From an uncultured virus (IMG/VR IMGVR_UViG_3300000227_000004) (Duplodnaviria > Heunggongvirae > Uroviricota > Caudoviricetes), in the IMG/VR virus record IMGVR_UViG_3300000227_000004, positions 55,274 through 75,273 of that record: a stretch of 20,000 bases of DNA. One strand, 5' to 3'. The notes beneath the pieces were generated by a model. It did no database searches and was not told the origin of the DNA. It saw only the letters and a list, made by a program, of their open reading frames with translations. Below are positions 1,950-17,700 of this stretch, piece by piece (position 1 is the stretch's first letter; each line of letters opens with the position of its first letter). The position numbers were made by a program, and so were the translations under genes.

Positions 1950-3643
1950 AAAATGCTCTCCTTGGTCAGTTTTGTTGTTTCGAGATCAATGATTTTTGGC
2001 AAATCGGTCTGGATGTTCACGTCTCCTATTATGTAATGACTCCTGACCGAGAATGTTTCGATTATAGTCTTCGTTCTTTTCTTGCTGCTTCTCTCCAAGC
2101 CGCGGATTTTGTTGTCAACAAAATCTATGACAAAAGCTACCTGCTTCCCGTGCGCAGATCGCACCACCCTACCAGCACGCTGTATTATTGTAACAGAGCT
2201 TTCAAAAGGAGTTGGGAAAAGTATCGCGTCTAAATTGGGGATGTCAACGCCTTCATCCAAAGTTGTTGTTGCCAAAATCACTTTGTTTTCTTTTTTAATA
2301 GTATCTTCTAATATTTTTGCCCTAGCTGCGGCCTTAGTCTCTCCGATGATTGAGGCGTTTTTTATACCCATACTATCTAGGTTCATCTGCAACGCTTCAA
2401 TTAGCCAAAGGTGATTTCCACAAACTACTGCAGAAGTTAGACCTTTAGAGGCCAAGACACGCAGCACGTTTATTACTGCACTAAATCTGCCAGGTTCAGC
2501 TAGAAGTTCTTTGTAAAACTCCGAGTTATGGAAAGAGAAATTATTTAACTTGTCCACTGAATCTGGGAATAAGTAGCCCTCGACATTTACTTTTAATAAA
2601 GATATTTCTGCTAAGTGCTGAGACACACTAGATTTTCCCACCATCACTTTCCTTTCTGAGAAAAGACCTTCCAGCATTAATACTTGTCCATCAGTCCTGT
2701 TTGGGGTAGCGCTGCAGCCATATACAACTGACGCACCAAGCGACGAAACTATGTTATAGTATGAGAACGTAGGAGCCACATGAGCCTCGTCCACTACGAC
2801 CATTGACTGAGGACTCTTCATGTTTTCATCCCCGAAACCGAGGTCTCGCAGCCCCTCTTTGTGCTTAGATTTTATCAGAGGCGGCGGGATTGGGAGGGAT
2901 GCTACTTTTTGGCCTGTTATCAAATCTGGGACGGGCTTACTCAACACAATCGCTTCATTGTAATCTGTAGCGTTTGCTAAAGACTTAAACGAGGCAATCA
3001 GTACGTTGGAATCTTTGTCCCCGCAGGTCAATGTTCCACTTGCCAACGTGCTGGGAGCCTTCCCTGTAACAATCTTTAGCGCCTTCTCCCATTGCGGGAT
3101 TAGCATTAATCTGTGACAAAGTATTATTGTTGGAAATGAGAAGTGTTTTATGGCGCCTGACATAGTCATAGTTTTACCACTACCTGTCATGGCGACTAGC
3201 AATCCTCGCTTGTTTTGCACTAATGAGTTGACACTGGCCTGCTGGTACTCTCTAAGTATGTTTAGCTTTTGCGGAATTTTTTCAAATACTGACATAGTCT
3301 CCTGTGAGAGATCCTTGTATCTACCTGTGGAGTCATGCACATAAACTACTCGTGTCGATATAGATCTTAACACCTTCCGTAGCAGGCCCAACGGCACTCC
3401 AGTGTATCCCATAACTCCCGGGCAGTTACTTACTGGAGTGGCGGCCATTAAGTATCTTGGTAAATAACTTGGCACTGTCCATCCCATAACTCTGCTCATT
3501 TTCTCTGCATGAACTAATCTGGGGTTTTTCTCCATTAACACCTGCCGGGCCATTGCAGCAAGCACGGGCTCGTCAGATTCATCTTGAGAAAGTACATCAA
3601 AGCTATTATAATATATATTAATCCTGATCATTGGAGACTCCAT
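1922..3643 (-). CDS. Superfamily 2 DExH helicase (UvsW/XPB/ResIII-like); true start may be the ATG at 3631
   Basis: Q motif LREYQ, Walker A AMTGSGKT, motif II VVVDEAH, motif III SATP, motif V DEGVDIP, motif VI QRAGRVVR. Confidence 0.92.
   Translation of the reverse strand: MESPMIRINIYYNSFDVLSQDESDEPVLAAMARQVLMEKNPRLVHAEKMSRVMGWTVPSYLPRYLMAATPVSNCPGVMGYTGVPLGLLRKVLRSISTRVVYVHDSTGRYKDLSQETMSVFEKIPQKLNILREYQQASVNSLVQNKRGLLVAMTGSGKTMTMSGAIKHFSFPTIILCHRLMLIPQWEKALKIVTGKAPSTLASGTLTCGDKDSNVLIASFKSLANATDYNEAIVLSKPVPDLITGQKVASLPIPPPLIKSKHKEGLRDLGFGDENMKSPQSMVVVDEAHVAPTFSYYNIVSSLGASVVYGCSATPNRTDGQVLMLEGLFSERKVMVGKSSVSQHLAEISLLKVNVEGYLFPDSVDKLNNFSFHNSEFYKELLAEPGRFSAVINVLRVLASKGLTSAVVCGNHLWLIEALQMNLDSMGIKNASIIGETKAAARAKILEDTIKKENKVILATTTLDEGVDIPNLDAILFPTPFESSVTIIQRAGRVVRSAHGKQVAFVIDFVDNKIRGLERSSKKRTKTIIETFSVRSHYIIGDVNIQTDLPKIIDLETTKLTKESILCQQNGTKG
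3584..3612 (+). promoter_or_regulatory. Sigma70-type promoter for the small plus-strand gene
   Basis: TTGAGA (3584-3589), 17-nt spacer, TATAAT (3607-3612), followed by GGAG (3633-3636) and ATG 3644. Confidence 0.6.
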
Positions 3644-3943
3644 ATGTTGTTAGAACTCATCAAAGCCGCTATCACCAAAGAAGCCGCTAGCAAACTTAAT
3701 GCTATTACTAAGTCCATCCCGCTAAGCAATAGTCAGAGTAATAAAAAACTAGATAAAATATCGCCTCCTAAGCAACCAAAGGCCACTGCCCCGTCAAGCT
3801 TAAGTGGCATGGATCTCATGGCCCCTCCTACTAACCCACAGGGCAATATGAAAACTCCAGGAATGGCCTACGTAGACAACATGGTCTCGGCCCCAGCTCC
3901 AGCCTTAGTAACAGAACTTAAGGCAGTGAATGCCGGCAGTTAA
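3644..3943 (+). CDS. Small low-complexity hypothetical protein (99 aa), opposite in orientation to its neighbours
   Basis: ATG 3644 with GGAG RBS and a near-consensus promoter. It fills the polA-helicase gap, and its TAA overlaps the polA stop (TTAA 3940-3943). The ORF-track TTG start at 3584 coincides with the -35 box and is unlikely. Confidence 0.65.
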   Translation: MLLELIKAAITKEAASKLNAITKSIPLSNSQSNKKLDKISPPKQPKATAPSSLSGMDLMAPPTNPQGNMKTPGMAYVDNMVSAPAPALVTELKAVNAGS

Positions 3944-6546
3944 AAACTACTTAAGTATTTCTCAACCGACATAGTACTCCCCCAGTTATCTCCAACACTT
4001 ATACCCACAGACATACTCAGGCATTCTGGGAAGCGATACTTAGTGTATAGTGGGATATCTTTTGTCATCCCAGCCTCTATGGCAGATATAGTCTGCAGAA
4101 TATTATCTTTATTTTTTGGGCAGATCGCTAGGATTTCATCATGTATAAAGCCAATGATTTTTGCCTGAAAGGGCAACTCACGCATTCTCGCACTTGCGTA
4201 TATGCCCCCCTGCTTGGTCATCTCGGCTGCCGATCCCTGTATAGGATGGTTTTGACTTCGTCTCAGGCACGACATCAGAGTTTTATAGTGCTCATACCCG
4301 TACTTTAGGCCCTCTATCGACAAGTCTTCTCTTACAAAGGGCTCACGACTGAAAAGACTATCTGCGCTATTTATTGGAATTGTAGGATCTAGTGGCGTGT
4401 AATACCGTCTACGGCCTAGGACATCTTCTGAGTATCCATTTTTAATTGCAAACGAATACTTCTCTCTGATCCAAGGTTTTATTCCTGGGAATGCAGAAAA
4501 ATAATCCTGGAATATCTGCTTAGCAGACTCCAAAGTAATCCCAGTTCTTTGAGCGAGAGTGGGCTCAGATCCACCGTAAACTAGCAAAAACGTTACAGCC
4601 TTTGCAATGTTTCTTAGCTTAGGGAATTTTGCCTTAATTTCCCATATTGGCGTATCTCCAATTTGTGCAGCAAACACTTTACTGGTTACTAAATCATGAA
4701 CTTCTATTCGTCTACAGTAGTCAGGTGTCCCAATGCTTGGGGTTATCTTTGGGCAGTGGTGTTTATCGTGAATTTTACTACACTTATAACACGGGTTATA
4801 TGCCCTGAGAAGGTACTCATCAAGGCAGCTGGCTGCCAGTATAACTACTTCCTGCCCAGAATAGTCAACTGATATTATACAGTATCCGTCCGGGGGGATA
4901 ATTGCTCGTCTTATCAAATCTGAAGCTTTTTTCGGCAAATTCTGGAGATTTGGGTTTGTACATGAGATTCTGCCGGTTTCAGCAACGGTCTGTAGAAAAG
5001 ACGGGTGGACATTATTAGTGACTGGATTCAGCCTTTCTATGAATGAAAGCGTGTAGGTGCTTTCTAGCTTTTTAAGCCCCCGCCGCTCAAGTATCTTTCC
5101 AAGTATTGGATCTCCAGTCTTTTCGGCGAGCTTCTCCAGTGCCTCTACGTCCACTGATGGGCTTCCTGATCCTGTTTTCTTCTCCGGAGTATAATTTTTG
5201 ACAGTATACAGTTCGTTGCACAACTGGGCTGCTGAATCTACATTTATGCCGTTTAGCGCAGCTGACAATTCAACTCCCATTTCGTCCACTTGCTTTCTAA
5301 GCCGTAGATTCAATTCTGTCAAGTACTCCCGGTCAAGACCAAAACCAGTGAGTTCAGCTTCAGCCAATACTTTCAGAAATGGCATATCCACATCTTTGAG
5401 GAGATACTTAAAGTCTTTGTACAATGGCCACATTTGGGCCATCATTAGCAGCGCCTCATTGCAACAGTCCTTCACACAATAATTAGCTATCTTGTTTATG
5501 GGCACTGACGGAAGAGCTTTGAAGAAAGATTTCCCCTCTTTCCACTCCTCAATCATAGGAAAGCGATCGGCCACCGAACTCCCTAAGTTAAACCGACCAC
5601 TCAGTCGGCAGTCTAGTATGTATTCACCTATCATTGTGTCTAAAAGCAAATCTAATGATACTGAGAAATTAGTTTTAAAGAACTGGTACTCAAATTTAGC
5701 GTTATGTGCTACTATTTTTCGCTTCACCAATATTTCATGCACAAATTCGTGGATTTTTGACTTAGGTAGTATCTTTGCGTAAGTTATGTCTTCGGTTGAC
5801 TTAATGCCTTCTGAGGAGAATGATGCCTGGTAGTCTAGCTGCCCCCCGATAGGCTGCTTACACGGAATGTAAAAACCTTCAGATGCATCTACGCAAAGCC
5901 CGATACCTAGTATGTCACTAGTATATGGGTCTAGTCCAGACGTTTCTATATCTATAATTATGGGGTATGCTTTCTCTGTAATTTTTGAGACTAGCTTGGA
6001 TAAAGTGGCGTCGTCATGCACTACATGCACTTTACAAGGCATCCCCTGTGCTGTTAGTACGTATTTCTCAATTATGTCTTTAATTATTTTTCCAATTTTT
6101 TCCAGATCAACGTCACTAGCTACCGCACCGGACGCCAGCAAAGATTCATAGTCTCGTTTTATTAAATCTTCCAATAAATAGCCCTCTGTGGCATTTTTAG
6201 CGTATAGCACTGTTTCTTGGGCAAGAGCTGCGCTACCATTGGTTGAGAAGACAGTCATTGTGTGTGGTGCGCTCTTGGCGTTAATAAATCGGTTATATTT
6301 AAGTGCTGCGTTTAAATCGCTGATCTTTGGCTGAGATAAATGCCTGCTGTTAGGCACCAGCAGGTTAAATAGTCGAGATATGTCCGCCAAATTTTTTGGA
6401 AGGGAGGCGGAAACAAGCTGTATGACTCTGTCCAATCCTGCCGGATATGGCAGAAAGCCAAGCCCAGGAACAGACACGGTAGTGCGCGGCACCACCCCCA
6501 CTTCTACCCGGTGTCTTGGCCTCTTAATTATGTCTGACAATGTCAT
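3940..6546 (-). CDS. polA: Family A DNA polymerase with 3'-5' exonuclease (phage type)
   Basis: Exo motifs IIDIETSG, HNAKFE and YCVKD. TGRISCTNPNLQNLP, motif A VDYSGQE, motif B RNIAKAVTFLLVYG, NHPIQGSAA, motif C IHDE. AAGGAG RBS. Confidence 0.96.
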   Translation of the reverse strand: MTLSDIIKRPRHRVEVGVVPRTTVSVPGLGFLPYPAGLDRVIQLVSASLPKNLADISRLFNLLVPNSRHLSQPKISDLNAALKYNRFINAKSAPHTMTVFSTNGSAALAQETVLYAKNATEGYLLEDLIKRDYESLLASGAVASDVDLEKIGKIIKDIIEKYVLTAQGMPCKVHVVHDDATLSKLVSKITEKAYPIIIDIETSGLDPYTSDILGIGLCVDASEGFYIPCKQPIGGQLDYQASFSSEGIKSTEDITYAKILPKSKIHEFVHEILVKRKIVAHNAKFEYQFFKTNFSVSLDLLLDTMIGEYILDCRLSGRFNLGSSVADRFPMIEEWKEGKSFFKALPSVPINKIANYCVKDCCNEALLMMAQMWPLYKDFKYLLKDVDMPFLKVLAEAELTGFGLDREYLTELNLRLRKQVDEMGVELSAALNGINVDSAAQLCNELYTVKNYTPEKKTGSGSPSVDVEALEKLAEKTGDPILGKILERRGLKKLESTYTLSFIERLNPVTNNVHPSFLQTVAETGRISCTNPNLQNLPKKASDLIRRAIIPPDGYCIISVDYSGQEVVILAASCLDEYLLRAYNPCYKCSKIHDKHHCPKITPSIGTPDYCRRIEVHDLVTSKVFAAQIGDTPIWEIKAKFPKLRNIAKAVTFLLVYGGSEPTLAQRTGITLESAKQIFQDYFSAFPGIKPWIREKYSFAIKNGYSEDVLGRRRYYTPLDPTIPINSADSLFSREPFVREDLSIEGLKYGYEHYKTLMSCLRRSQNHPIQGSAAEMTKQGGIYASARMRELPFQAKIIGFIHDEILAICPKNKDNILQTISAIEAGMTKDIPLYTKYRFPECLSMSVGISVGDNWGSTMSVEKYLSSF

Positions 6547-9065
6547 ATTTTGTCACTCCTTTCCACAGACATCATAGCTGCGAGACTCTCTATTTCCCTA
6601 ATCTGAGCTTTAGTTACAGATGCTGCCATATCTATGAGACCATACGAAAGCTCTTTTATCTTGGGATATATCTTCTCCCGAATATCACGAACTATGTTTT
6701 CAAACATCAGGTAAAGCTCCGAGTATTTATTATGGGAAACAGATACGGCCCAGGCAATCTCCCCCCGAAGGACATTCACAGTGTGGGGAAGTCTCAAATG
6801 AGAGAGCCTATCATACCCTTTCGGAAAATACTGCTTTATGTAGCTATCTGATGGGCAGATTAATCCAGTTGTGTCCATCCATTTAAGATACACTGCTGCA
6901 TATTTTTTTAAATTATGAATCTTTGCCCTCAAGTTTCTTGACTTGCCCCTTGCCAGTCTAATCGTTACCCCAGGCTTGGGGCCATCATACTCAAGAAAAG
7001 TAATACCGAACACCTCACGCTTTTTCGTCCCTAGTATAAACTTAGTTTTTTCCGGAGAAATATGTAAATTTAGCTTACTAAATGCTTTCTTAATAACACT
7101 AATTATCTTTGACTTTACCTCGGTGTCAGGGGCTTGATCTAGTATTACTGTCCAGTCATCTACATAAACACGCACGTGCCCCCCTAGACTGGCCAGATCT
7201 TTTGATACTGAGTCAGCCAAATAAGTCGCCACATAGTTAGCCAACACCGGACTCGTTCTAGTGCCCTCCGGCAATCCATCTGTGTGGCTCGTCATCAAAT
7301 CCAAAGTCAATTCATACCCAGTCAGTATGCCGGCTTCTACCTCTTTCCAATAAGAAATATCGTTAGTAAAATCACAGAGCTCCGTCCTGTTACTTCTAAA
7401 GATATGTACCAGATCTGTAAGCGTTGACAGTGGCAAATCAACCGAGTAATATCTGCTCCCCACTTCTAAGATTAGTTTACTTGCCGTAGTTCGGTGTGTG
7501 CATATTCTCACTTTTAAGTTGTCTGGGGCTGTGAGTAGGGAGAACCCAAGCCCCGGCTCCGATAAATAAAGATATTTATCTCCCGCATAGATATACTCAG
7601 TACCTGCTATTTCCACCGACTTCAGCACTTCTAGTTGACCCTCCTCTGTAGTACTCAAGTAGGTCAATGTTACGTTTGCATTCGGAGTGCAGGTATCTGT
7701 CCTCTGCTTAGTATCTAAATAAATAAGCTTATCGGCATGTGAAAACTTAGATATATTTGGAACTATTGATATATGATAATATTTATCCGCTAGTAGCGCA
7801 GTGTAATCTTTACCTTTTATTGTGAAAGTGTGTGACCCGTTACTCGCATCCAGCACTGTGCATACGCTTCCATATGGGACTCTATGTGCTGATATTTTGG
7901 GCACGTCCGCACTTGCAATTTGCATCGGGTGAAAGTCACTTAGGTCATCTTTTGTAGGATCAGTGTCCAGCCTTATAATAAATCTTTGTCCAGGTGAGAC
8001 TGGTGCCCCGGGGAGTGGGAAGTCAGCTGCGCAATCTTTCGGCAGAATTTTTGGGCAAGGGGAGATCAACAGCAGGCTTTTGTGCATACTCAAGACTATT
8101 GTGTTCATGTAGTTTGCAATATGTACTAAGTGTGCCTGAAGTGCTGCCTTTCCATCTTCTGTCCACCTCCCTATCTCTGGAACTAAGCTCGACACTTTAT
8201 CCATTGAGAAGGCCCTGCTATTCATTACTCCAAACTTAGATGAATGTAGCGTCTTTAGAAGAATGAGAAGAAATATTACTGGATTTACTTGCAAAGCCTG
8301 AGCTCTGCACAGCAAGGCCAGCTTGGATAAGTATATGCTGATGTGTAGCAGGGCAGCCCCTACTTCTGACGTAGATGAATCTACTCCCAAGGATAATGAT
8401 TCGTTCTTAAAGAGAGAAGAGCCCTCACAATCTATTACCGGCACCGAGTAGTCACTCAATGAGTCAGGACTGAAGACTATTTCGTCAGGACTAACGTGTT
8501 GTAATATTGTGGGCTGTGGGGAAATGCGGGTCCGAAACTTATCGCTGGCCGTAAGGAGTGAGGAAAATAATATCAGTGCCTCTTTTTTAACAACGTAAGC
8601 CATGGACTTTATAACGGCAGGCCTTTTTGTTTCCCTAAAATAACTCTTAATATCAGTCTTAAAGACTGCCGCTTTTTTGTATGCCAGTCTCGGTATCTCT
8701 GTGACGTGCCGGCCGGCAACACCTCCGACAATCTCTTCTGGTATCAGGTTGGCAAATAGAGCCGAGTTCGGGTTCACTGTTAGAAATTTTTTGCTTTCGA
8801 GCACTCGTAAGTCTTGCGCAGTCGTCGCATCTCGTCTTTTTATGAGAGTAGAGAAACCTTCCGTGCGCCAAAACTCTCGCAGATGGACCCTTCGTGCGAA
8901 GACGGTCTTTTGATGATTTTTAAAAGTTGTGTGGCCTATCTCCAAAAGTTCACACGGCTTGAATATGTATCTAAACTTAGTCCCATTAGATTTTGGTATC
9001 TTGCTTATTTTATATAGAGATCGTTTTATTTCTGGAGTCATTATTCGTGCCATTTTCTTTCTCAC
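6543..9065 (-). CDS. Retron-like reverse transcriptase with a large internal insertion (840 aa; start could be GTG 9065, ATG 9053 or ATG 9041)
   Basis: YKISKIPKSNGTKFRYIFKP (RT1), GGVAGR (RT2), FKTDIKSYF (D138), GLPEGTRTSPVLAN (aa 597), YVDD (aa 634-637, nt 7155-7166), ISPEKTK, EVFGI and a retron-like thumb RNLRAKIHN. Confidence 0.9.
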   Translation of the reverse strand: MRKKMARIMTPEIKRSLYKISKIPKSNGTKFRYIFKPCELLEIGHTTFKNHQKTVFARRVHLREFWRTEGFSTLIKRRDATTAQDLRVLESKKFLTVNPNSALFANLIPEEIVGGVAGRHVTEIPRLAYKKAAVFKTDIKSYFRETKRPAVIKSMAYVVKKEALILFSSLLTASDKFRTRISPQPTILQHVSPDEIVFSPDSLSDYSVPVIDCEGSSLFKNESLSLGVDSSTSEVGAALLHISIYLSKLALLCRAQALQVNPVIFLLILLKTLHSSKFGVMNSRAFSMDKVSSLVPEIGRWTEDGKAALQAHLVHIANYMNTIVLSMHKSLLLISPCPKILPKDCAADFPLPGAPVSPGQRFIIRLDTDPTKDDLSDFHPMQIASADVPKISAHRVPYGSVCTVLDASNGSHTFTIKGKDYTALLADKYYHISIVPNISKFSHADKLIYLDTKQRTDTCTPNANVTLTYLSTTEEGQLEVLKSVEIAGTEYIYAGDKYLYLSEPGLGFSLLTAPDNLKVRICTHRTTASKLILEVGSRYYSVDLPLSTLTDLVHIFRSNRTELCDFTNDISYWKEVEAGILTGYELTLDLMTSHTDGLPEGTRTSPVLANYVATYLADSVSKDLASLGGHVRVYVDDWTVILDQAPDTEVKSKIISVIKKAFSKLNLHISPEKTKFILGTKKREVFGITFLEYDGPKPGVTIRLARGKSRNLRAKIHNLKKYAAVYLKWMDTTGLICPSDSYIKQYFPKGYDRLSHLRLPHTVNVLRGEIAWAVSVSHNKYSELYLMFENIVRDIREKIYPKIKELSYGLIDMAASVTKAQIREIESLAAMMSVERSDKI

Positions 9066-9690
9066 TTTCGTTTGTTATTATTTTTGATAAATCCGCCAAT
9101 CCGATTTCTAACGGAAAATACGTGTTTACTCCGGTCCCCAACTGTTTTGGGTCTGTCGGTCTGGCGTAATTTATGGCTGCGTATAGGCATGCCTCTGGGT
9201 ATCTATCTATGTCCGTCCTTATTATGTATTTCAATGCGGGATTCGCTTCCCACATTTCCCTAGGTAACTGTGCTGGGTGTTTGACACCAACCCTGGACGC
9301 TCTGTATACTTCCCTCAGCACTATTGCCCCTGTGTTGGTGTATATTCCTAGACACTTTAACAGACCGATTACTAAGGCTATATAAGTCAGTGGATCAGTT
9401 TTTGCTTTCACTGTGGTTAACTTTGCACACATGACTGCATCTTCAGAAATAGGTATCGAATAATAATTTCTGAAGAAATTCAGATGGACTAGTAGCAGCT
9501 TTTTAAAAGTAAATCGTTTTATTCCAAAAAGCCTGACTAATTCCACTATGCACATTGGGGAAGTGCTCTCGGCCACATACTTGGCAAGAGTTTCTATGGA
9601 CTTGTCTAAACTGGATCTGCTTAGATCGGTGGCATACTTAATTTTGTATCTTCCATTAGTTAACTTCCGAATCTCTTCCGAATATATCAT
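9010..9690 (-). CDS. Hypothetical protein (226 aa) directly upstream of the RT
   Basis: GAGGAG RBS before ATG 9690. Overlaps the primase-helicase end and the RT start. No family recognised. Confidence 0.75.
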   Translation of the reverse strand: MIYSEEIRKLTNGRYKIKYATDLSRSSLDKSIETLAKYVAESTSPMCIVELVRLFGIKRFTFKKLLLVHLNFFRNYYSIPISEDAVMCAKLTTVKAKTDPLTYIALVIGLLKCLGIYTNTGAIVLREVYRASRVGVKHPAQLPREMWEANPALKYIIRTDIDRYPEACLYAAINYARPTDPKQLGTGVNTYFPLEIGLADLSKIITNESEKENGTNNDSRNKTISI

Positions 9691-12600
9691 CTATACTCTC
9701 CTCAATTGGCTTGACTTCTCCGGAAAAGATTATATCGTTGGACGTAATACCAGACAGCTTTCTGTCACGTAAGTCTCTGGCTAATTTGTACAGCTTGGCA
9801 GTAGGTTTATATGTGCCTCCAGTATACTCTGTGTCTAGCATATTATCTGCGGCCAGAAGTTGCAGGACTTTAATTACGTCATTTCTGTTGAGTTTAAGGT
9901 GCATTGCAAGTTCTTCGGCCCTTATCCTGTTAACTTGATTTATGTGAAAAATTATTTCGGTAATGCTCACGGTAGTTGGTATCTGGTGACGTGCCAGCAC
10001 TCTTGAAAAATACTGAAGCCAATCGGCAGGAACTTCTACTTTTCTACGGCATTCTGCTGCCTCTTCATCTAATGCTACTGATTTTGAACCATAAGTCCCG
10101 TCCAGCAGGGCATACGCATTTTCTACGTCTTCAATTGTCACAGTTACTTTAACAAAATCGTCACTTCTCATGTTAAACATCGCCATGGATGCACTAATTC
10201 TAGCAACTTTCTCATGAGTATCCGTGGAAATTAGTGGCAGTGTCGTAGCTGCAGCGTAGTACTTATCCATTAGAACCATGGCTTTTTTTAATATTTCCCG
10301 GGTAACTTCCGGAGGAAATATTATTTCTGCGGGGCTCCTGGTCCAGGACCACAAAAGCCCCGTCCTAACTACGTCCTGCGGCACAGTGAGTTTAACATCT
10401 GTCACTTCTTTTAAGATTACACTGGCGTCAACTTCATCTTTGAAGAAGAACTGAAATATATCAAATCTTCTAGCATCAGGCGTTTCCATAATCTCCATTA
10501 TTGCTTGACAGCCACGTTTATAAGTATCCATTGATAGGCCTTTTGCCGGATTTGCCGAAGCGATTAAACGTACTCGGCAAGCTTTAGACCCTCGCTTAAT
10601 TTTTGTAATCATGGCTCTGCCGGTAGACCTTATTTCTCTTAAAGCACTTAAGGCGAGTGTGTTACTTTGCAGCTTTTCCATTTCATCGATGAAAACGATT
10701 GTTTTGTCACTAATAGGCAACAGCCCCCAGGATATATATTGGTGGTTGTCATACTTATCCACGCCCCCAATTAAGCCGGCAGTAGTAGCATTCCCCCCGC
10801 TTACGTGGTTATACGTCCCAAGGAATTTCAAAATATGTTCTGGCATTTTTGATTTGCCCTGTGAGGAATCTCCGATGAAGCATGTCTCCACCCAGCCTCT
10901 GTCTAGCATACGGCCGTTAAACTCAATCTGTAGTGGACTGAATAGGGTGAGCATTACAGTGAGTGCCTCTCTGTATCTACCCCTAATGCCGCAAACCTGG
11001 TCTGCCATTGAGTATACGAGCTCCTGCTTATCCAGAGCCTTGTAAGCTTTCAGCTGCTCCAGCTGTTCTGGAGTAGGATTGAATTGGTCTAAATTACCTA
11101 ACATTCGTTCTACTTTAGAGAAGACGAAAGTAGTTTTTTGATCTTTCGGATGTGGATGGACTCGGCCAATTCCAATATAGTCAGTCGACACATTTATGCT
11201 GTGGCCATTAAAATATGAATAATATGTCCTAGGCTCTATGGAGAACCGGCTTTTAAATAGCATGTTTCTCATAACTTCATCCGCAGATGATATCATGATG
11301 GGCTGTACATGGTGGTGGGATTTTTCAGTCATTTTTAGAAAAGCCGGCTTTACACACGGTATTCTAGCAAATCCCATCAGAACCCTCTTGTTGTTTGCCT
11401 CAGGGATACCTATACATGAGATCAGGTCTTTCCCATCAGACGAAACTACATATTTAGTCTCACCCGATTTATTATTAAAATCGCAGATGACTTTATTGCC
11501 AGTCCTGGCTGGGCACCCTTCCGAACAAGTAAATATTACTTCTTTAGGAACATGGTATGAGCCACCAACTAATGAGTCAGCTTTGAATGGGACTGATATT
11601 GACTTACCTATTACTTGATACTGCTCAACTTGCTCAACCAGTTCAAGCCTTTGATCTACCTTTGATTTAGGGTATGCGAGTTTTATGGGGGACAAGCCTC
11701 CCCGGTCTATGATCTCAGCACAATTCTTGGCGCAAATATGGATGTTTTGCATTCTGGCGCAAGACATCGGAATGTACTTCTTCTGATCTCTCGCATGCCG
11801 TATCATCTTTTCAGTTTCTTCTTTGCTGTAGTCAGAGCAATTAGCGATAATCTCATGAAGTTTTTCAGCACCGCTCTCACCAAAATGTATGCAAAAAGTC
11901 ATCAGACAGACTCGCTCTTCGTGTAGTAAATGATGCTCTTTCTGTGCCTTGTTAATTAATCTTTTCAGCGCATTGCATCCGCTCAGCATGCTACTAATAG
12001 AAGCACACGTAGGGGGCTTGGATAAGTCCTTTATCTCTCCTTCTGGAGAATAAGTTCCCACGTTTAATTGTATATTGTTTATTTTGTCTAGGAGCTCTCC
12101 AATGTCATCCATCGAAAGCTTTCGTGTCTTTTTTAGGTAATCAAATTGAGATAGGGGTGGCTTATTCGCATCCTGGAACAGATCTACGAAATACCCTCGT
12201 TTACCAGTAACTCGGTGCACGCCTAGTGGGAGCTTTATCAAGCTTCCATATGCTCCCCCTGACGCCATCTGTTTTGGAAAAACCTCTAGAGATTTAGGTA
12301 GTTTTGCTTGAGTTTTTATAATAGACGCGAAGTTGTACACGGTCTTGACAGGTATGGGTCTGTCGAAAAATATGTCTAAATGCCAGCCTTTACTGCCTGA
12401 GAAAGAAACTAAATACATGTCGTTGGTTATGCCAACAGAATTCAAGTAAATAATAAAGTCTCTAACTTTGTTTTCTAGCACTAACAAAGCCTGGCTAAAC
12501 GCCTCATCTCTAGCCTTAGAGTCCGTTATCTGCTCGATCCCCCGTCGGTCTTCGATTCCAAGGTCGAAGTCAAAGGTGCAATGCAGGCAGCAATCTTTAC

Positions 12601-12841
12601 TGGGCTCTTCAAGTATAATCGTGTAAACACCAAGAGTTCGGCTCCCATCTAAATGACTAATTAGAGCCTCATCGAAATCTGCGTTCGGGCCTTCTATTTT
12701 ATTGTACCTGGATTTGTTATTCTCGTTAGGGGGGAGTTGCTCGGCGTAGCAGTGCTTATTTGTTTTATAAAAGCTGCTGAATAGCGAAACATTTTCCGGA
12801 GTTAAATCTAGCTGCTCATAAAGAACGGTACCATCCGTCAT
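9656..12841 (-). CDS. Primase-helicase fusion: AEP primase, PriL-like Fe-S domain, MCM-type AAA+ helicase and C-terminal winged helix
   Basis: AEP motifs FDFD, SFSGSKGWH and IKLPLGVH. Cys pattern C...HLLHEER...Y.PMSC..MQNIHIC..NC..SPI like the PriL C-terminal domain. MCM Walker A GDSSQGKS, Walker B IDEMEK, LIASANP and R-finger RRFD. AGGAG RBS. Confidence 0.88.
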   Translation of the reverse strand: MTDGTVLYEQLDLTPENVSLFSSFYKTNKHCYAEQLPPNENNKSRYNKIEGPNADFDEALISHLDGSRTLGVYTIILEEPSKDCCLHCTFDFDLGIEDRRGIEQITDSKARDEAFSQALLVLENKVRDFIIYLNSVGITNDMYLVSFSGSKGWHLDIFFDRPIPVKTVYNFASIIKTQAKLPKSLEVFPKQMASGGAYGSLIKLPLGVHRVTGKRGYFVDLFQDANKPPLSQFDYLKKTRKLSMDDIGELLDKINNIQLNVGTYSPEGEIKDLSKPPTCASISSMLSGCNALKRLINKAQKEHHLLHEERVCLMTFCIHFGESGAEKLHEIIANCSDYSKEETEKMIRHARDQKKYIPMSCARMQNIHICAKNCAEIIDRGGLSPIKLAYPKSKVDQRLELVEQVEQYQVIGKSISVPFKADSLVGGSYHVPKEVIFTCSEGCPARTGNKVICDFNNKSGETKYVVSSDGKDLISCIGIPEANNKRVLMGFARIPCVKPAFLKMTEKSHHHVQPIMISSADEVMRNMLFKSRFSIEPRTYYSYFNGHSINVSTDYIGIGRVHPHPKDQKTTFVFSKVERMLGNLDQFNPTPEQLEQLKAYKALDKQELVYSMADQVCGIRGRYREALTVMLTLFSPLQIEFNGRMLDRGWVETCFIGDSSQGKSKMPEHILKFLGTYNHVSGGNATTAGLIGGVDKYDNHQYISWGLLPISDKTIVFIDEMEKLQSNTLALSALREIRSTGRAMITKIKRGSKACRVRLIASANPAKGLSMDTYKRGCQAIMEIMETPDARRFDIFQFFFKDEVDASVILKEVTDVKLTVPQDVVRTGLLWSWTRSPAEIIFPPEVTREILKKAMVLMDKYYAAATTLPLISTDTHEKVARISASMAMFNMRSDDFVKVTVTIEDVENAYALLDGTYGSKSVALDEEAAECRRKVEVPADWLQYFSRVLARHQIPTTVSITEIIFHINQVNRIRAEELAMHLKLNRNDVIKVLQLLAADNMLDTEYTGGTYKPTAKLYKLARDLRDRKLSGITSNDIIFSGEVKPIEESIDDIFGRDSEVN

Positions 12842-12882
12842 AAGACACTCCTGGTTGGAAAATAGTAAAAAAAATAAAATCG

Positions 12883-12914
12883 AAAAAAGGCCCCGGAACT
12901 AATCCGAGGCCTTT
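12883..12914 (-). terminator. Intrinsic terminator after the SSB-like gene
   Basis: Minus strand reads AGGCCTCGGA-TTAGT-TCCGGGGCCT followed by TTTTT and further T runs. Confidence 0.8.
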
Positions 12915-12920
12915 GTTAGC

Positions 12921-13790
12921 TTAAAAAGCAAGATCGTCCAGATCTGGATTATCCACAATCTCAGCATCCGAAACTGAAGCTTCTGGCTTAACACGTCCTG
13001 TAACTTTGTTAAACAGTGTTTTTTCCACTGGAGCAGTCTGATGTTTGCCAGATGTGCCGCTATTTTTAATAGAGTTAGCGGCATTCATTGCGCCGTAAAT
13101 GTTTTCAAAATATTTTAACAAATCTTTCTGTTCGCGCAGACGATTTTGAGCTTCTTTTGCAAGCTCGACCTTGCTTTCGGCAGTCAAGGGCGTGAAAGTA
13201 AACTCAAACATGGACCATTCAGAATTCCCATCTTTCTTAGATGAGAGCCTGATTGAAAAGTCGAATAAACACAGCGGTGACTTAGAGGCGCTCTTGAGCT
13301 CCTGGATCTTTTTATTAAAGGCACCGACGCTAGTCTGAGGAATTTTAAGCTCTACGGGTCTGTCAATTTTTGGAATTTTAATAAGAAGTCTGTGCGAAGA
13401 TGAGCACTCTCTGTACTTACCCTCACCCACGCGTTTGTCCTTCCACTCATGGTGTGGGCATGTTTCACAGCTTTCGAATTTTGAGGGTCTTCCATGGTTG
13501 ATAGCTACGCACACTGGTGCTTTGTTTTCATCCTCACCCTGGTCTTCCCGCTTTTCGTAGTATTCCATGAATGAGGCATGAGTGACAACCCAGCCCTTCA
13601 ATTCTTTCGTGACTGAGTCATCGGGTAAACTAAACGTCTGGTTGGAATGACCCACCTTCACTTTAGGGAACCTGTTGATTCTGGCACCAAAGGCCGCGAT
13701 GTCATGCTGGGCACTCTCTTCGATGAGGGCAGCGAGCTCCGGATTGTCTGTCAAAATACTGGCGTCAATTGTGGTAAGGTCGGTGTTCAT
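12921..13790 (-). CDS. Phage single-stranded DNA-binding / annealing-type protein (289 aa)
   Basis: Start reassigned to ATG 13790 (AGGAG RBS, ATGA overlap with the upstream stop). Acidic aromatic-ending tail DNPDLDDLAF, CxxC motif, and position between nuclease and primase-helicase. Confidence 0.65.
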   Translation of the reverse strand: MNTDLTTIDASILTDNPELAALIEESAQHDIAAFGARINRFPKVKVGHSNQTFSLPDDSVTKELKGWVVTHASFMEYYEKREDQGEDENKAPVCVAINHGRPSKFESCETCPHHEWKDKRVGEGKYRECSSSHRLLIKIPKIDRPVELKIPQTSVGAFNKKIQELKSASKSPLCLFDFSIRLSSKKDGNSEWSMFEFTFTPLTAESKVELAKEAQNRLREQKDLLKYFENIYGAMNAANSIKNSGTSGKHQTAPVEKTLFNKVTGRVKPEASVSDAEIVDNPDLDDLAF

Positions 13791-14686
13791 AAATCGTCTC
13801 CTGTTAAAAAATTTGGTTTGGGTTTTGATAATAGCATTTTTAGGTTCTCTTCGTCCAGGCAATATTCAGCATATTCACACGGGCAGTTGCCATTTCTGTA
13901 ATTCCTGCTGATTTTATTATTCCTAAGAATATCATCTACTAAGTCTATTCTTTCGAATAATTCTTTTTCTGCCGACTGGATTTCTTCTGGGGTAAACATG
14001 TATGAGTAAATTTTAAAATTCTTAGTTAGAATAAACTCATGTATCTCGTAAGACTCTATTATAATGTCAGTCTTTTGTTCTATGGCCTTTTTGTAAACCA
14101 GTAACTGTTGCTTGAATTCTTGCCTAAGCTTCATTTTATGGAACTTGTTACTTAATGGATCTTTAGGGTGGTCCTGCCCTGCGGTTTTAAAGTCGATCAG
14201 TCGTCTGTCATACCGCAAATCTAGCTGGCCTTTGAACTTCTTTTTTTTTATGATGATTTCATCATAAGTTTGTTCAGTGTCAATAGCCGCATCGTGTGTC
14301 TGATACTCAAAATTGTTAGCTAAAAAATCTCCCATACCAGTTATTAGGGCGGAATTACTTTCTAAAATCTCAGCTGACTGTTTCAAGACATCTTCATCAA
14401 TTAGTTCTTTCTTTTGTTTCTTGAAGAACTCTACTGCTTGATGAAGACATTCTGAAAATGTTTCTTCCGCACCTCTTGGTGCAGATTTGCTTTTGATTTT
14501 TAGAAAGTAATTCTCTAAAGCCTTGTGTATTATCTTACCTTTGGTTAGGGCAGGGGACTTACAATGAAAGGGGAGCCTTAGGATTGAGCCTAAGACCCCC
14601 TTCATTGAGCATGCCAGCATTGTAGACAGAAAAGATGGGGACATGTGCCCCCGCAATTCTAGGTTTAAAAACATAAATTCCTTCAT
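13787..14686 (-). CDS. PD-(D/E)XK exonuclease, Cas4/AddB/RecB-like, with probable Fe-S staple
   Basis: SPS...C, GKIIHKALE, KGQLD...LIDFKT, QLLVY and C-terminal CPCEYAEYC. Confidence 0.85.
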   Translation of the reverse strand: MKEFMFLNLELRGHMSPSFLSTMLACSMKGVLGSILRLPFHCKSPALTKGKIIHKALENYFLKIKSKSAPRGAEETFSECLHQAVEFFKKQKKELIDEDVLKQSAEILESNSALITGMGDFLANNFEYQTHDAAIDTEQTYDEIIIKKKKFKGQLDLRYDRRLIDFKTAGQDHPKDPLSNKFHKMKLRQEFKQQLLVYKKAIEQKTDIIIESYEIHEFILTKNFKIYSYMFTPEEIQSAEKELFERIDLVDDILRNNKISRNYRNGNCPCEYAEYCLDEENLKMLLSKPKPNFLTGDDL

Positions 14687-14865
14687 AAGCTACACCTTTA
14701 CAATGTGTTTGTTTTGATTGTGCAACGTTGTCCTCCCAATATGGATTTAGGGCGATTTGGTCCTGAGATGTTTTGATCCTGGTAGTCTTGTTCTCCTTCC
14801 ACAGTCGGGTGACTAATAATTACCTTTTATTATTAGTCATCCGACTGTGGAGGAGAACAAACAAG

Positions 14866-14904
14866 TTTTAAAGTCATATGCGTCGATGACAACGCTAAGT
14901 TCTA
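14866..14904. repeat. Conserved repeat copy 1
   Basis: TTTTAAAGTCATATGCGTCGATGACAACGCTAAGTTCTA; 36/39 identical to copy 3. Confidence 0.95.
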
Positions 14905-15089
14905 AAGTGTGTATATATTGTCTTTCACTACATGTGCGTGTCTCGTGGTTCCAATTTTGTTTTTATTCAAACGTCTACCTGGATGGTCCAACCGTCGCTG
15001 CTGTCATGTTGGTCGTACTTCTCGGATCGTGATCCAGAGGACGATCAACATGACAGCAGCGGAGGTTTGGGCCATCGTATATTATGTTT

Positions 15090-15118
15090 ATATGCGTCGA
15101 TGGCAACGCTAAGTCCTA
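15090..15118. repeat. Conserved repeat copy 2 (29-nt core)
   Basis: ATATGCGTCGATGGCAACGCTAAGTCCTA; 27/29 identical to the copy 1 core. Similarity to copy 3 extends ~11 nt further (TGTGAAAGATT vs TTTGTAAGATT). Confidence 0.95.
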
Positions 15119-15268
15119 TGTGAAAGATTTTTTTGTTAAAAAAAATCGGCAATCTTACCCTGTTCTGGCCGGCCTTACACTTTGCGCGGGGCAGACCTTA
15201 CATCTGATTGGGGTCTACCTTAAGCCTGTATGGGGCAGCGGTTGCCCCAGGTTGGGATTGCCGATTAA

Positions 15269-15307
15269 TTTTAAAGTCATATGCGTCGATGAGAACGCTA
15301 TGTCCTA
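15269..15307. repeat. Conserved repeat copy 3
   Basis: TTTTAAAGTCATATGCGTCGATGAGAACGCTATGTCCTA; unit periods are 214 and 189 nt. Confidence 0.95.
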
Positions 15308-15349
15308 TTTGTAAGATTACTGTCCTTATAACGTATTTTTCCGTTTTTT

Positions 15350-17107
15350 TTATGCTGGCCCTTCTGAGAACCTTCTTGACCAAAATTCTGTCTTTCTAAC
15401 TTTGTTCCAGCTTGATAATGGGACGAAGTACCCAATTATTCTTGTCGTGTAATCTACTATTTTCCCTTTGCAAATCGGGCATTCACTGTGTTTTCCTATA
15501 GTATTATGCTGATTCTCGCATTGAGCATACACATGTGTCGGTGCGAAATGAGTCATCCCTGCCTTTGCGGCCATTTTTATCAATGAAATCATGCTTTTGT
15601 TCGTCAGTTGTTTTTCTATATTCAGATGAGTAATCGCACCCCCCGTAAAGTATTCATCCAGCTCTCCTGCGTATTTCACTCTGTCTAATAGATCAACATC
15701 TTCCCAAAGTGGTATATACTGATTGCTTAATATCTGGAGGCCCACTTCCTGCCCTAACTCTGCCGCAGCACTTTCCCCAGGTATCTGCTCTATGTTTATT
15801 GGCATTTTTAGACACTTAGACATGCATGATACCGAATCTTTTATTATGAGCATGATGCTCTTTATTTCCTCGATTATCTCTACTAATTTTGGCGATTGAA
15901 CACCTTTCTTACTTAGGGATATTATTGCCCCTTCCCAGATGCCTATAATACCTACAGTGGAGAAAAAATTCTGATCTAGGTTCTCCCAATTATTCTTAAA
16001 GAACTTTAAAAACTTCCCAGACTTATGCGACACTAAACTTCTTAAAAGTTCTCTATGGGTCTTAAGCACTTTTATGGCGGTGTTTGTATACTCCTCTAAA
16101 GATTTCCCGTCTGAGATTATTTTCGGGATATTTAAAGTAACGACTCTGTGAGAGCCTATTCTGACCCCCCCATTGCCAAAAGAGTCTACGCCTGCCATGT
16201 CCATAAGTAAATCTAAATCATTTGACATTCGGCAACATGATGCGAACTTCCTGGCATCTTTAGAGATGTATATGTTAAGTCTACCGGTTTTTAGGTAAGA
16301 GGCTATCTCATGGAGCCACTCTTCGTCTAGAATTTCTCTTGTTGGTGAGAGGGCTATATTGGCCGTAGTTACGGGGAATCTAAAAGGCTTGCCCTTTATC
16401 CCTTTAGCGAATTCTTCAAGAAAGACTTTCTGTAGCGCTTTTATAATTAGTATCTGCTCTGGCGTTTGCTTGAATACTACATCAAGCGTCGGAGCGTCCG
16501 CGATAGTCACATTTACAAACGGAGATTGGCCTGATGGCCTCACTTTTCTGTGGAAGGTAAAGATCATTGATTGGTATACATTAGCAATGTGGTATTTCTC
16601 TTGATTAACATGCTCGACAGATTTAAAAAACTCAGCGGAGTTTACAAACAAGTCTGGGATTGCTATTGCGCCGGCATGATCTTGTGCCATCTCTAGAACT
16701 AGGTCTATGACCTGCATAACATAGCTGTCAAATCTCTTGGGCCTGTCTGATGGGTAATCCTCTACATACTGGAGTCCCTCAAGTAGTATTCTACCAGTAG
16801 AAGTGGCATAGCAATATGGTATGATGCCCTTAGTTATGTCATGAAAATAGAAATATTTAGGGGCGGCCGGCCCGGACATGTGTGCTTCTTCACGCCAGAA
16901 TTTATCTAACTCCTCACGAGTCATGTGCTCTGAAAGATTATCATACATCATTTTTACGGTCAGGTCTGCAAGACCTTTTGCTGCGTAGTCCATGGCAAAG
17001 TTACTGAAAGAAAAGTTAGCGGCATTGGCATTTTTATCGTAAGCTATTTCACCTGGCTCTTCAGTCATGTGTTTCTGGAACATTTGGTAAGATCTATCAT
17101 CTAACAT
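15350..17107 (-). CDS. nrdD: Anaerobic (class III) ribonucleoside-triphosphate reductase, no ATP-cone
   Basis: YFHD, PYC, QSPFVN, active-site ASCCR, EQIPGES, GGAITH, Zn site C..H...CPIC and glycyl-radical loop TRIIGYF. Adjacent activase. Confidence 0.95.
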   Translation of the reverse strand: MLDDRSYQMFQKHMTEEPGEIAYDKNANAANFSFSNFAMDYAAKGLADLTVKMMYDNLSEHMTREELDKFWREEAHMSGPAAPKYFYFHDITKGIIPYCYATSTGRILLEGLQYVEDYPSDRPKRFDSYVMQVIDLVLEMAQDHAGAIAIPDLFVNSAEFFKSVEHVNQEKYHIANVYQSMIFTFHRKVRPSGQSPFVNVTIADAPTLDVVFKQTPEQILIIKALQKVFLEEFAKGIKGKPFRFPVTTANIALSPTREILDEEWLHEIASYLKTGRLNIYISKDARKFASCCRMSNDLDLLMDMAGVDSFGNGGVRIGSHRVVTLNIPKIISDGKSLEEYTNTAIKVLKTHRELLRSLVSHKSGKFLKFFKNNWENLDQNFFSTVGIIGIWEGAIISLSKKGVQSPKLVEIIEEIKSIMLIIKDSVSCMSKCLKMPINIEQIPGESAAAELGQEVGLQILSNQYIPLWEDVDLLDRVKYAGELDEYFTGGAITHLNIEKQLTNKSMISLIKMAAKAGMTHFAPTHVYAQCENQHNTIGKHSECPICKGKIVDYTTRIIGYFVPLSSWNKVRKTEFWSRRFSEGPA

Positions 17108-17700
17108 TTTTTTATCTCCTGTAAGTTTTTATCTTCAAATTCTGGTCGATATTGTCCAATAATTACATCTGTGATAGTTGCATGGCCGTCCTTGGCTAAC
17201 GAGAGTTGCTTTACCACTAACCCATCAGAGTTACGTAGTCTGCCCCACAGAATTGCGTCTATTTCCTTAAGTCTGCACTTGTCCTCACCCCCCTCTTCAG
17301 AGAAATCGGCCCCCGTATACCAAATGATCTTAACATAGGGGCATAGAAGCTTAATTTTATGCACTAACGCTAGCCAATCTTCTAACTGAAAGAAAAAATC
17401 CCCCCCAGAACCCACAACAGTCAGGTCATGGCAGGAGACTTTTTTTAAAAATTCAGATTTAGCTTTTATTATCTCTATGATTGCCTCTTCATGCAAACCA
17501 GTGTTATCATCATTTAATTCAAAGCATTGTAGCGATTTATTATGACAGCCGGGACAGGCCCACTTGCATCCTACTGCATAAAGAACTAGGGAGGGGTTTT
17601 CGAAAACTATGTCATCACTGAACGAGCACGATACGGTTGCTACTCTTAGCATAGGGCTGCTCCTGAAAGATCTCTTATGTTTGTCGGGAATAGAAAGCAT
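17101..17700 (-). CDS. nrdG: Class III RNR activase, radical SAM (start may be ATG 17652)
   Basis: GCKWACPGCHN (CxxxCxxC), SGGD, IWYTG; overlaps the nrdD start. Confidence 0.9.
   Translation of the reverse strand: MLSIPDKHKRSFRSSPMLRVATVSCSFSDDIVFENPSLVLYAVGCKWACPGCHNKSLQCFELNDDNTGLHEEAIIEIIKAKSEFLKKVSCHDLTVVGSGGDFFFQLEDWLALVHKIKLLCPYVKIIWYTGADFSEEGGEDKCRLKEIDAILWGRLRNSDGLVVKQLSLAKDGHATITDVIIGQYRPEFEDKNLQEIKKC

Follow-up and report, generated by a model that had tools for sequence, protein, structure and literature searches.

A conserved tandem array of structured RNA modules ahead of the replication genes of a phage that encodes a retron-like reverse transcriptase

Introduction

Retrons are bacterial defence elements with one RNA per reverse transcriptase (RT). 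What, then, would a retron-like RT do among the replication genes of a phage, and which RNA would it copy? The question is raised by a stretch of 20,000 nt from an uncultured member of the Caudoviricetes (IMG/VR record IMGVR_UViG_3300000227_000004, positions 55,274–75,273), hereafter the window. The window makes up the final 20 kb of a virus contig of 75,273 nt, for which completeness is estimated at 41%, such that ~59% of the genome lies outside the contig. On the − strand of the window, a run of replication genes includes an RT gene and, well upstream of it, a non-coding gap. An earlier note on this DNA had proposed that the RT could copy several different hairpins from an array of repeat units in this gap. 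Here we analyze the array, its relatives and the RT. There is good support for the view that the gap encodes a conserved series of structured RNA modules, each carrying a common recognition handle. The best single explanation, to which we would give a probability of roughly 45%, is that this handle is recognized by the retron-like RT, which would copy the variable parts of the modules into complementary DNA (cDNA). Literature search listings and abstracts yielded no description of an array of several retron-like units, nor of a phage replication operon with a retron-like RT in it.

Results

The gap holds three structured units

The gap spans 663 nt and contains three units, each with a common ~45-nt element followed by a different and very stable structure. 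Positions are those of the window unless a contig or relative is named, and the − strand is referred to as the gene strand.

14687–15349, − strand: non-coding array, with units a, b and c in − strand reading order
15325–15332, − strand: GTTATAAG box, a putative promoter element, ~22 nt upstream of the first unit
15123–15323, − strand: unit a; handle 15283–15298; multibranch domain 15136–15274, then U8–9
14909–15134, − strand: unit b; terminal helix 15120–15127 with 14921–14928 (UCUUUCAC/GUGAAAGA); handle 15094–15109; long hairpin ~14975–15080
14687–14920, − strand: unit c; terminal helix 14896–14913 with 14691–14724; handle 14880–14895; long hairpin 14786–14863

The earlier note had described three units with a shared repeat and unrelated hairpins, and this description holds. 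Copies of the repeat lie at 14865–14915, 15079–15129 and 15268–15318, with spacings of 214 and 189 nt, and the inverted repeats between them (arms of 23, 30 and 27 nt) are unrelated to one another. Whole units folded on the gene strand gave z scores of −4.5 (a), −8.27 (b) and −7.86 (c), and none of 200 shuffles was as stable. In unit b, the terminal helix, handle and long hairpin are all present in both the minimum free energy (MFE) and centroid folds. For unit a, a candidate end pairing of 15310–15321 with 15148–15159 was found by RNAduplex only (−12.7 kcal/mol, z −3.4) and is missing from the MFE fold. In the MFE fold of unit c, the handle is displaced by pairing with a complementary stretch downstream, and the nuclease ribosome-binding site lies within the 3′ arm of the unit c terminal helix. 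Together, the alternative pairing and the covered ribosome-binding site could make unit c a translation-controlling RNA switch.

In this contig and the loci of the relatives, the repeat is confined to the arrays. Its core pattern occurs three times in the forward and zero times in the reverse orientation of the 75,273-nt contig, and a reversed control pattern does not occur at all. A covariance model of the repeat, run over 813,341 bases, matched its 17 training copies and nothing else, and no handle was seen elsewhere in the 75-kb contig or in the 8–23 kb loci of the relatives. Two scans of IMG/VR yielded handle matches at 42 and 71 loci, which we regard as chance (one match per locus, no arrays), and an exact 20-mer handle pattern gave 0 matches there. 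No Rfam family reached threshold, the only hits being hairpin-shaped microRNA models (13–36 bits, against gathering scores of 44–144), and no tRNA was found. We also considered the handle as an intrinsic terminator and rejected this idea: U-rich tails follow only some of the copies in two relatives (L005 and L006) and none in the window or in a third (L007).

The GTTATAAG box lies ahead of the first unit in L005 (3473) and L006 (3518) as well. The contig has five occurrences, all on the − strand, three of them intergenic and just upstream of − strand genes (others at − strand 48294 and 2601). Judging from these positions, the box is possibly the −10 promoter element of this phage group. In L007, a box lies immediately ahead of the RT gene (L007:6692).

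The array keeps its position in relatives

Relatives were found in the metagenome collection only. Four loci (L004, L005, L006 and L007) carry full-length or near full-length RTs of the same family (34–36% identity). At most of the other 70 loci the match is confined to the C-terminal palm/thumb of the RT, the exception being L065, in which the match also ends within the palm. The gene order of the window is kept in the relatives. The L004 contig, 98% identical to that of L006, terminates ahead of the gap; between L005 and L006, identity in coding DNA is 72–74%.

All three contigs that reach the nrdD–nuclease junction have an array there, with four units in L005, four in L006 and at least six in L007, at spacings of 155–230 nt. 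The L007 contig begins inside or just before its array. In the relatives, G+C content is 0.47–0.50 in the arrays and 0.43–0.45 in the flanks. Array and RT occur together in all four genomes in which both regions are visible (the window, L005, L006 and L007), and no relative with the array and no RT, or the reverse, was found among those retrieved.

Beyond this group, neither the gap nor the RT had a match among 50,697 phage records, and the gap was also unmatched among plasmids. IMG/VR contains no RT relative apart from the window's own record, GTDB genomes contain none, and a word-based protein search returned the window's own protein only.

The shared handle is a covarying hairpin

The 17 copies of the handle in the window, L005, L006 and L007 were aligned. 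They form a 6-bp stem with a loop of 3–4 nt, in which 101 of 102 cells are paired (99.0%) and three of the six pairs are altered on both sides; examples are GCGGUG/CGCCGC, GUGAUG/CGUCAC, UUGUCG/CGACAA and ACGUCG/CGACGU. The pairing and covariation scores were reached by none of 500 shuffles, and controls in which the arms were slid pair in 21.6–79.5% of cells. The compensatory changes favor base pairing over a protein that reads a duplex palindrome. Conservation extends to a 13-nt single-stranded stretch 5′ of the stem, inside which a G, 6–7 nt from the handle, is present in 17 of 17 copies. Unconstrained MFE folding recovers the handle in 14 of the 17 units.

In 11 of the 17 copies, pair 5 of the handle is U·G on the gene strand, which would be C·A on the opposite strand. 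The alignment consensus folds at −8.92 kcal/mol on the gene strand compared to −4.80 kcal/mol on the other. This U·G pair is the sole clear pointer to strand; the operon direction and the upstream GTTATAAG box are both consistent with it.

Each unit is closed by its own ends

Pairing also joins the two ends of each unit: the 25 nt ahead of the handle pair with the final 60 nt, 150–200 nt away. These complementary ends are new here and go beyond the earlier note. The mean energy of the end duplex is −12.6 kcal/mol with a unit's own 3′ end versus −8.4 kcal/mol with units of other genomes, and 15 of the 17 units have their best within-genome partner in their own 3′ end. Among all within-genome permutations of the ends, the true assignment ranks first in three genomes (of 6, 24 and 24) and in the top 10 of 720 in the fourth; when random re-pairings were combined, 2 of 200,000 matched the observed sum. 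The terminal helix appears in 13 of 17 unconstrained folds.

Comparison of L005 and L006 points the same way. In unit 2, the terminal helix is preserved despite different letters on both arms. In unit 1, the two genomes share two identical blocks, AGTAATCAATA ahead of handle 1 and the complementary block where the unit ends, while the remainder of the unit is unalignable; pairing between the unit ends explains these blocks. The conserved G is unpaired in 9 of the 13 helix-bearing units. It stands directly after the helix and unpaired in five of the six L007 units, and elsewhere it lies a few nucleotides from the helix end or is bulged within the helix. For the last unit, in the window as in L005 and L006, the 3′ arm of this helix lies over or directly beside the nuclease ribosome-binding site.

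According to the available text of a review (PMC8632793), validated retron RNAs have in common that their 5′ and 3′ ends are complementary, that msr has short stem-loops and msd a hairpin with a long stem, and that a branching G is conserved. As predicted from their folds, each of our units resembles such an msr–msd RNA, a likeness that we draw from the handle hairpin, the closed ends, the conserved G and the retron-like RT. The earlier note had seen a repeat-then-hairpin order on the RT strand, similar to msr followed by msd; the order stands, as handle and then variable hairpins, and the closing ends and conserved G are now added to it.

The variable domains

Units b and c of the window have one long hairpin each (arms of 30 and 23–35 nt). 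Between L005 and L006, 10 of 27, 4 of 25 and 6 of 20 predicted pairs in the variable parts are altered on both sides, a weak signal, given that two sequences are compared, of structure being retained as the sequence drifts. The variable domains of the window fold at −58.9, −79.3 and −74.5 kcal/mol on the + strand versus −52.7, −60.6 and −63.3 kcal/mol on the − strand, with z scores alike. Over all units, we counted 60 G·U pairs on the gene strand and 73 on the other.

Relative to dinucleotide-preserving shuffles, 6-bp palindromes are abundant in the arrays of the relatives: 51 versus 17.2 in L007 (1–1006; z 8.2), 25 versus 12.0 in L006 (3500–4273; z 3.9) and 22 versus 13.5 in L005 (3451–4225; z 2.4). 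These palindromes mostly differ from one another (31, 23 and 21 kinds, respectively), and some stretches look like polylinkers. The window's own array shows no such excess (13 versus 9.7, z 1.1), and outside the arrays the loci are near random expectation.

The one public sequencing run that contains this phage (run X1) provided two further observations. Phage contigs on either side of the unit-a domain, at a depth of ~45, break there, and the domain (~15142–15266) has matches of ≥90% in short run X1 contigs of depth 163–748 that then continue into unlike flanks. No handle appears within the 25–30 letters reported for the flanks of these look-alikes, and two exact words from the unit-a domain gave no match in GTDB genomes or IMG/VR. 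This suggests that the unit-a domain has relatives in other, more abundant replicons. Because the contigs come from a mixed sample, the depths are evidence of neither copy number nor cDNA. The run X1 strain also differs from the window at four positions in 13500–15129 (14976, 15036, 15055 and 15056), all in or beside hairpin b: three lie inside the hairpin, and 14976 is 14 nt ahead of its 5′ arm. There are zero differences across the other ~1,550 bases of that contig piece and zero in 15313–16500.

The RT is retron-like with a large insertion

The RT gene encodes 840 aa, with two features of particular relevance.

6543–9065, − strand: reverse transcriptase, 840 aa (RVT_1, E 2e-10)
7155–7166, − strand: catalytic YVDD (RT motif 5), in the translation VRVYVDDWTV
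7302–8570, − strand: ~430-aa insertion between motif 3 (FKTDIKSYF) and motif 4 (LPEGTRTSP)

An all-against-all HMMER comparison (E ≤0.001) linked 19 proteins: a family of 15, made up of the window's own RT and 14 relatives, and 4 ordinary retron RTs. Complete family members are 460–1197 aa long. Shared motifs are IPKxxGxxFR and FKTDIKxFF in the N-terminal fingers and LPEGAxTSP, YxDD and a basic helix in the C-terminal palm/thumb. RVT_1 matched 12 of 12 family members; in these 12, Y634, D636 and D637 are invariant and the motif 3 Asp (D138) is invariant or nearly so. The earlier note had called the RT intact-looking on the basis of its YVDD, and these data bear this out.

The protein is laid out as retron-like fingers (~7–165) and palm/thumb (~589–800), with an insertion of no recognized fold between them. 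In the relatives (P0004–P0015) the insertion ranges from roughly 200 to 800 aa and is poorly conserved. No Pfam domain was found in it in 12 members, and no usable Atlas match (TM ≤0.30). Telomerase has a much smaller insertion at the same place, in the fingers.

The best PADLOC matches were retron RT models for all four family members tested (E 5e-16 to 1e-27), in the C-terminal half only; in the window RT, the match covers residues 590–734. The next matches beyond the family are full-length retron RTs, and the family profile aligns to solved retron RTs (Ec78, Kva2 and others) in two stretches, N-terminal and palm, that flank the insertion. Drt2 and Drt3a models match weakly, and less well than the retron models. 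Based on its nearest kin and intact catalytic residues, and with scores far below curated cut-offs, the RT appears to be retron-like, and not a standard retron RT. Hence, the label of the earlier note is upheld in part: the closest known kin, for either half of the protein, are retron RTs, while the VTG signature is missing and scores fall far under the curated thresholds.

The surrounding replication module

The array and RT belong to a run of − strand genes that reads NrdG, NrdD, gap, nuclease, 313-aa open reading frame (ORF), primase–MCM, 226-aa ORF, RT, PolA and helicase. The other features of the module are as follows.

17101–17700, − strand: NrdG activase (PF13353)
15350–17107, − strand: NrdD, upstream of the array (PF13597, E 1e-67)
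13787–14686, − strand: PD-(D/E)XK (Cas4/RecB-like) nuclease, the first gene past the array (PF12705, E 7.8e-12)
12921–13862, − strand: 313-aa ORF
9656–12841, − strand: archaeo-eukaryotic primase (AEP) fused to an MCM-type helicase (PF22548, PF00493, PF04104)
9010–9690, − strand: 226-aa ORF, overlapping the primase–MCM gene and the RT gene
3940–6546, − strand: PolA
3584–3943, + strand: small 119-aa gene between helicase and PolA, with its own ribosome-binding site
1922–3643, − strand: helicase

Because its flanking genes overlap it, the RT gene leaves no space for an RNA gene beside it: the 226-aa ORF overlaps the start of the RT gene by 56 nt and the end of the primase gene by 35 nt. The earlier note was therefore right that an ncRNA has no room directly upstream. 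It was also right that the array occupies the only large non-coding gap, since the other apparent gap, 3644–3939, is taken up by the small + strand gene, which is conserved (kept in L004 and L005) and for which we found no family. At 663 nt, the array gap is conspicuous because other neighboring genes overlap or abut, and a crude ORF tiling makes it the largest intergenic stretch detected in the contig.

The position of the 226-aa ORF is kept in the relatives (209–249 aa, 21–27% identity). It has no match in Pfam, PADLOC, PHROGs, NCBIfam or PDB, and Atlas gives weak leads (<0.9). Primase–MCM is 43–60% identical to its counterparts in the relatives; in cultured phages, the only relatives found are 22–24% identical (Bacillus and Microbacterium phages), and those in IMG/VR are confined to the AEP domain. 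In L005, four ORFs (539, 235, 271 and 241 aa; L005:13595–17808) stand where the window and L004 have one PolA (868–873 aa), and the L005 polymerase gene may thus be split or invaded.

Elsewhere, the contig encodes DNA ligase, large terminase and tail proteins. Contig 5133–11243 (+ strand, outside the window) encodes one protein of 2036 aa that combines Rpb2-type and Rpb1-type polymerase domains (a fused β/β′), and contig 13510–14319 (+ strand, also outside the window) encodes the phage's own sigma-70 family factor. No family was assigned to a 1940-aa ORF of the contig. At the very end of the contig (19873–20000 of the window) is a G+C-rich tandem repeat, with periods of 24 and 30 and ≤3.9 copies, inside ORFs of both strands.

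Comparison with known systems

Retrons provide the closest comparison. They are the nearest kin of the RT in both protein halves, and each array unit has the complementary ends, the short 5′ stem-loop, the longer 3′ hairpins and the conserved G near the 5′ arm. Unit b carries all the RNA features listed in the review in both MFE and centroid folds, its G being a candidate for branching only. RNA and RT lie on one strand, with the RNA upstream, and in type I-A retrons effector genes stand between RNA and RT. Several differences are clear, however. There are 3–6 RNA modules per RT here and one in retrons; four genes and 5.6 kb separate RNA and RT; the RT has the ~430-aa insertion between motifs 3 and 4 and VFG in place of VTG; and the system is phage-encoded, in a replication operon, with no recognizable effector. 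Retrons have been defined as contiguous cassettes with the ncRNA gene beside the RT gene, in the available text of PMC7736814. The accessible part of a comparative paper on jumbo phages (PMC7824862) contains nothing on such RTs.

Defence-associated RTs (DRTs) such as DRT2 likewise combine a prokaryotic RT and a structured ncRNA in one locus, and Drt2 and Drt3a models give the weak matches mentioned above. In DRT2-type systems, one RNA adjoins the RT. DRTs are host defence genes, whereas the RT here is part of a phage replication module.

Phage diversity-generating retroelements (DGRs) also have a phage-encoded RT with YxDD. Here, by contrast, the RT best matches retron rather than DGR models, there is no Avd-like match, and the 75-kb contig has no template/variable pair: compared with the contig, the gap matched itself or chance words of ≤13–15 nt, in a search that covered the ~41% of the genome present in the contig. 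As for group II introns, no Rfam intron model matched the window at E up to 1, and the RT gene overlaps its neighbors. CRISPR arrays, and the CRISPR-repeat RNA mimics of phages, similarly alternate a hairpin-forming repeat with unique sequence. In our array the unique parts are 120–190 nt, structured and uneven, with the spacing of 155–230 nt, and the repeat sits inside a closed module instead of bounding a spacer. No cas genes appear among Pfam, PADLOC and NCBIfam matches except the Cas4-like nuclease, which scores 23.4 bits against the cas4 model, under the cut-off of 65. The absence of DGR, group II intron and CRISPR-Cas hallmarks claimed in the earlier note is thus confirmed for the sequence at hand.

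Early-operon leaders of T7 and lambda contain RNase III sites and nut-type hairpins between the promoter and the first gene. The array shares with them several different hairpins, including small conserved ones that would bind protein, between a putative promoter and the first gene of an operon. It differs in having 3–6 tandem modules, each with a hairpin set and handle inside its own terminal helix, and no relation was found in Rfam.

Discussion

What RNA, then, might the RT use? We propose that the gap is a tandem array of retron-like ncRNA modules, which opens the replication operon and would be transcribed on the gene strand. The parts of a module are a 7–12 bp terminal helix (a1/a2-like), a single-stranded stretch with the invariant G, an msr-like handle and a fast-changing, stable, msd-like hairpin domain. 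The likeliest reader of the handle would be the retron-like RT, whose gene belongs to the same run and lies 5.6 kb downstream. From each variable domain this RT would make a distinct small cDNA, perhaps with priming at the conserved G, and such cDNAs might serve as decoy substrates for host nucleases or in starting replication. We prefer this reading because it covers the module plan, the presence of an intact RT with no other candidate RNA in the operon, and the exclusive location of the handle.

A number of observations weigh against it. The RNA is not beside the RT, with four genes and 5.6 kb between them (the array ends at 14687 and the RT gene starts at 9065). The co-occurrence of array and RT in four of four genomes is uninformative, because the genomes are syntenic and every gene of the module co-occurs. 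On the protein side, VTG, the motif 7 signature of retron RTs in the available text of PMC8632793, is absent: the retron R-H-V-T-G-V corresponds to a family consensus of R-e-i-l-G-v, with REVFGI at this site in the window RT and LFG, IFG, ALG, ILG or VFR in other members. The NCBIfam model retron_St85_RT scores 49.3 bits compared to a cut-off of 235. The ~430-aa insertion and the location in a replication operon could indicate a different job that involves no such RNA. On the RNA side, the terminal helix is missing from the MFE fold of 4 of the 17 units, and the shuffle z scores of the end pairing are modest (mean −1.5; fraction ≤0.01 in 3 of 17 units only). In most units of the relatives, and in unit a, the variable part forms 2–4 shorter hairpins rather than one long one. 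Outside the U·G of the handle, the evidence does not choose a strand: terminal helices favor the gene strand in nine units and the other strand in seven, with one tie, and whole units are more stable on the other strand in 12 of 17. Lastly, a closing helix with internal hairpins is also the build of RNase III stalks and of many other RNAs.

The main rival is that the array is a structured leader that works independently of the RT, its cis-acting protein sites, RNase III-type stalks or stabilizers tuning the level, timing and translation of the nuclease–primase–RT–PolA genes, in which case the RT would act on something else. We consider this possible, if on the whole unlikely. In its favor, the array has a conserved promoter-like box on one side and the opening gene of the operon on the other; the last unit's 3′ arm reaches the nuclease ribosome-binding site in three genomes, and the alternative pairing of unit c displaces the handle. 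RNase III requires ~20 bp, and the window stems have arms of 23–35 nt, enough for a double-strand RNase to act on. Moreover, retron-type RTs of types VIII and XI have no recognizable ncRNA, as stated in the available text of PMC7736814. Left unexplained by a leader are the retention, in tightly packed genomes, of 3–6 autonomous closed modules with one handle, the variable number of units, and the feature-by-feature match of the module plan to retron RNAs; an intact retron-like RT would also be left with no candidate RNA in the operon.

Two other roles fit less well than either RT-directed copying or a leader, because of the long-range covarying helices and of the helix arm upstream of the repeat. 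The hairpins could form in single-stranded, gene-sense DNA and be recognized by the AEP primase–MCM as replication origin or priming signals, similar to the single-strand initiation signals of plasmids. No larger non-coding stretch was detected in the contig, the array lies within the replication module and has the motif to itself, and DNA hairpins tolerate G·T pairs. Cumulative GC skew turns at ~17.5 kb, 2.3 kb off, which would make the − strand the lagging-strand template, an inference weakened by the fact that the turn coincides with a switch in gene orientation. Covarying complementary segments 150–200 nt apart suit a folded single strand, not duplex DNA; the arrays of the relatives are richer in G+C than their flanks, with no obvious A+T-rich unwinding element; the 155–230 nt spacing is unlike that of iterons; and nothing links the primase to the motif. 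We regard an origin as very unlikely. Least probable of all is that the repeat is a promoter, of sigma-70 or N4-like hairpin type, and the units are separate small-RNA genes. On the − strand, the window repeats do read TTGNCA-16-TAAAAT, TAATAT or TAAAAC (two flagged by the scan, the third by eye), and a run of eight or nine U follows the final stem of unit a. The −10-like element is absent from L005, L006 and L007, the scan found 6 promoter-like sites where 4.8 are expected, and covariation is not anticipated inside a promoter spacer. The contig encodes the fused β/β′ and a sigma factor, with no single-subunit or N4-type RNA polymerase found. Furthermore, the terminal helix has its 5′ arm ahead of the repeat, so the RNA must begin before the repeat.

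A more specific version of RT-directed copying would have a lytic phage make a panel of multicopy hairpin DNAs during infection with one retron-derived RT and 3–6 modules, as decoys for nucleases of the host or of rivals, or as DNA-modification sensors, in counter-defence. This version draws on the fact that the parts that would be copied in the relatives are packed with 6-bp palindromes of the type II restriction kind. As a whole, it strikes us as improbable.

If the RT does read the modules, a shared handle can program one RT for several unrelated templates, which would be relevant to retron DNA production and genome editing. It would also mean that phages turn retron chemistry to their own ends, and that RTs tolerate very large insertions between motifs 3 and 4 with their catalytic residues kept. 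Even with no role for the RT, the array represents a new, well-supported class of structured phage RNA with a clear module plan.

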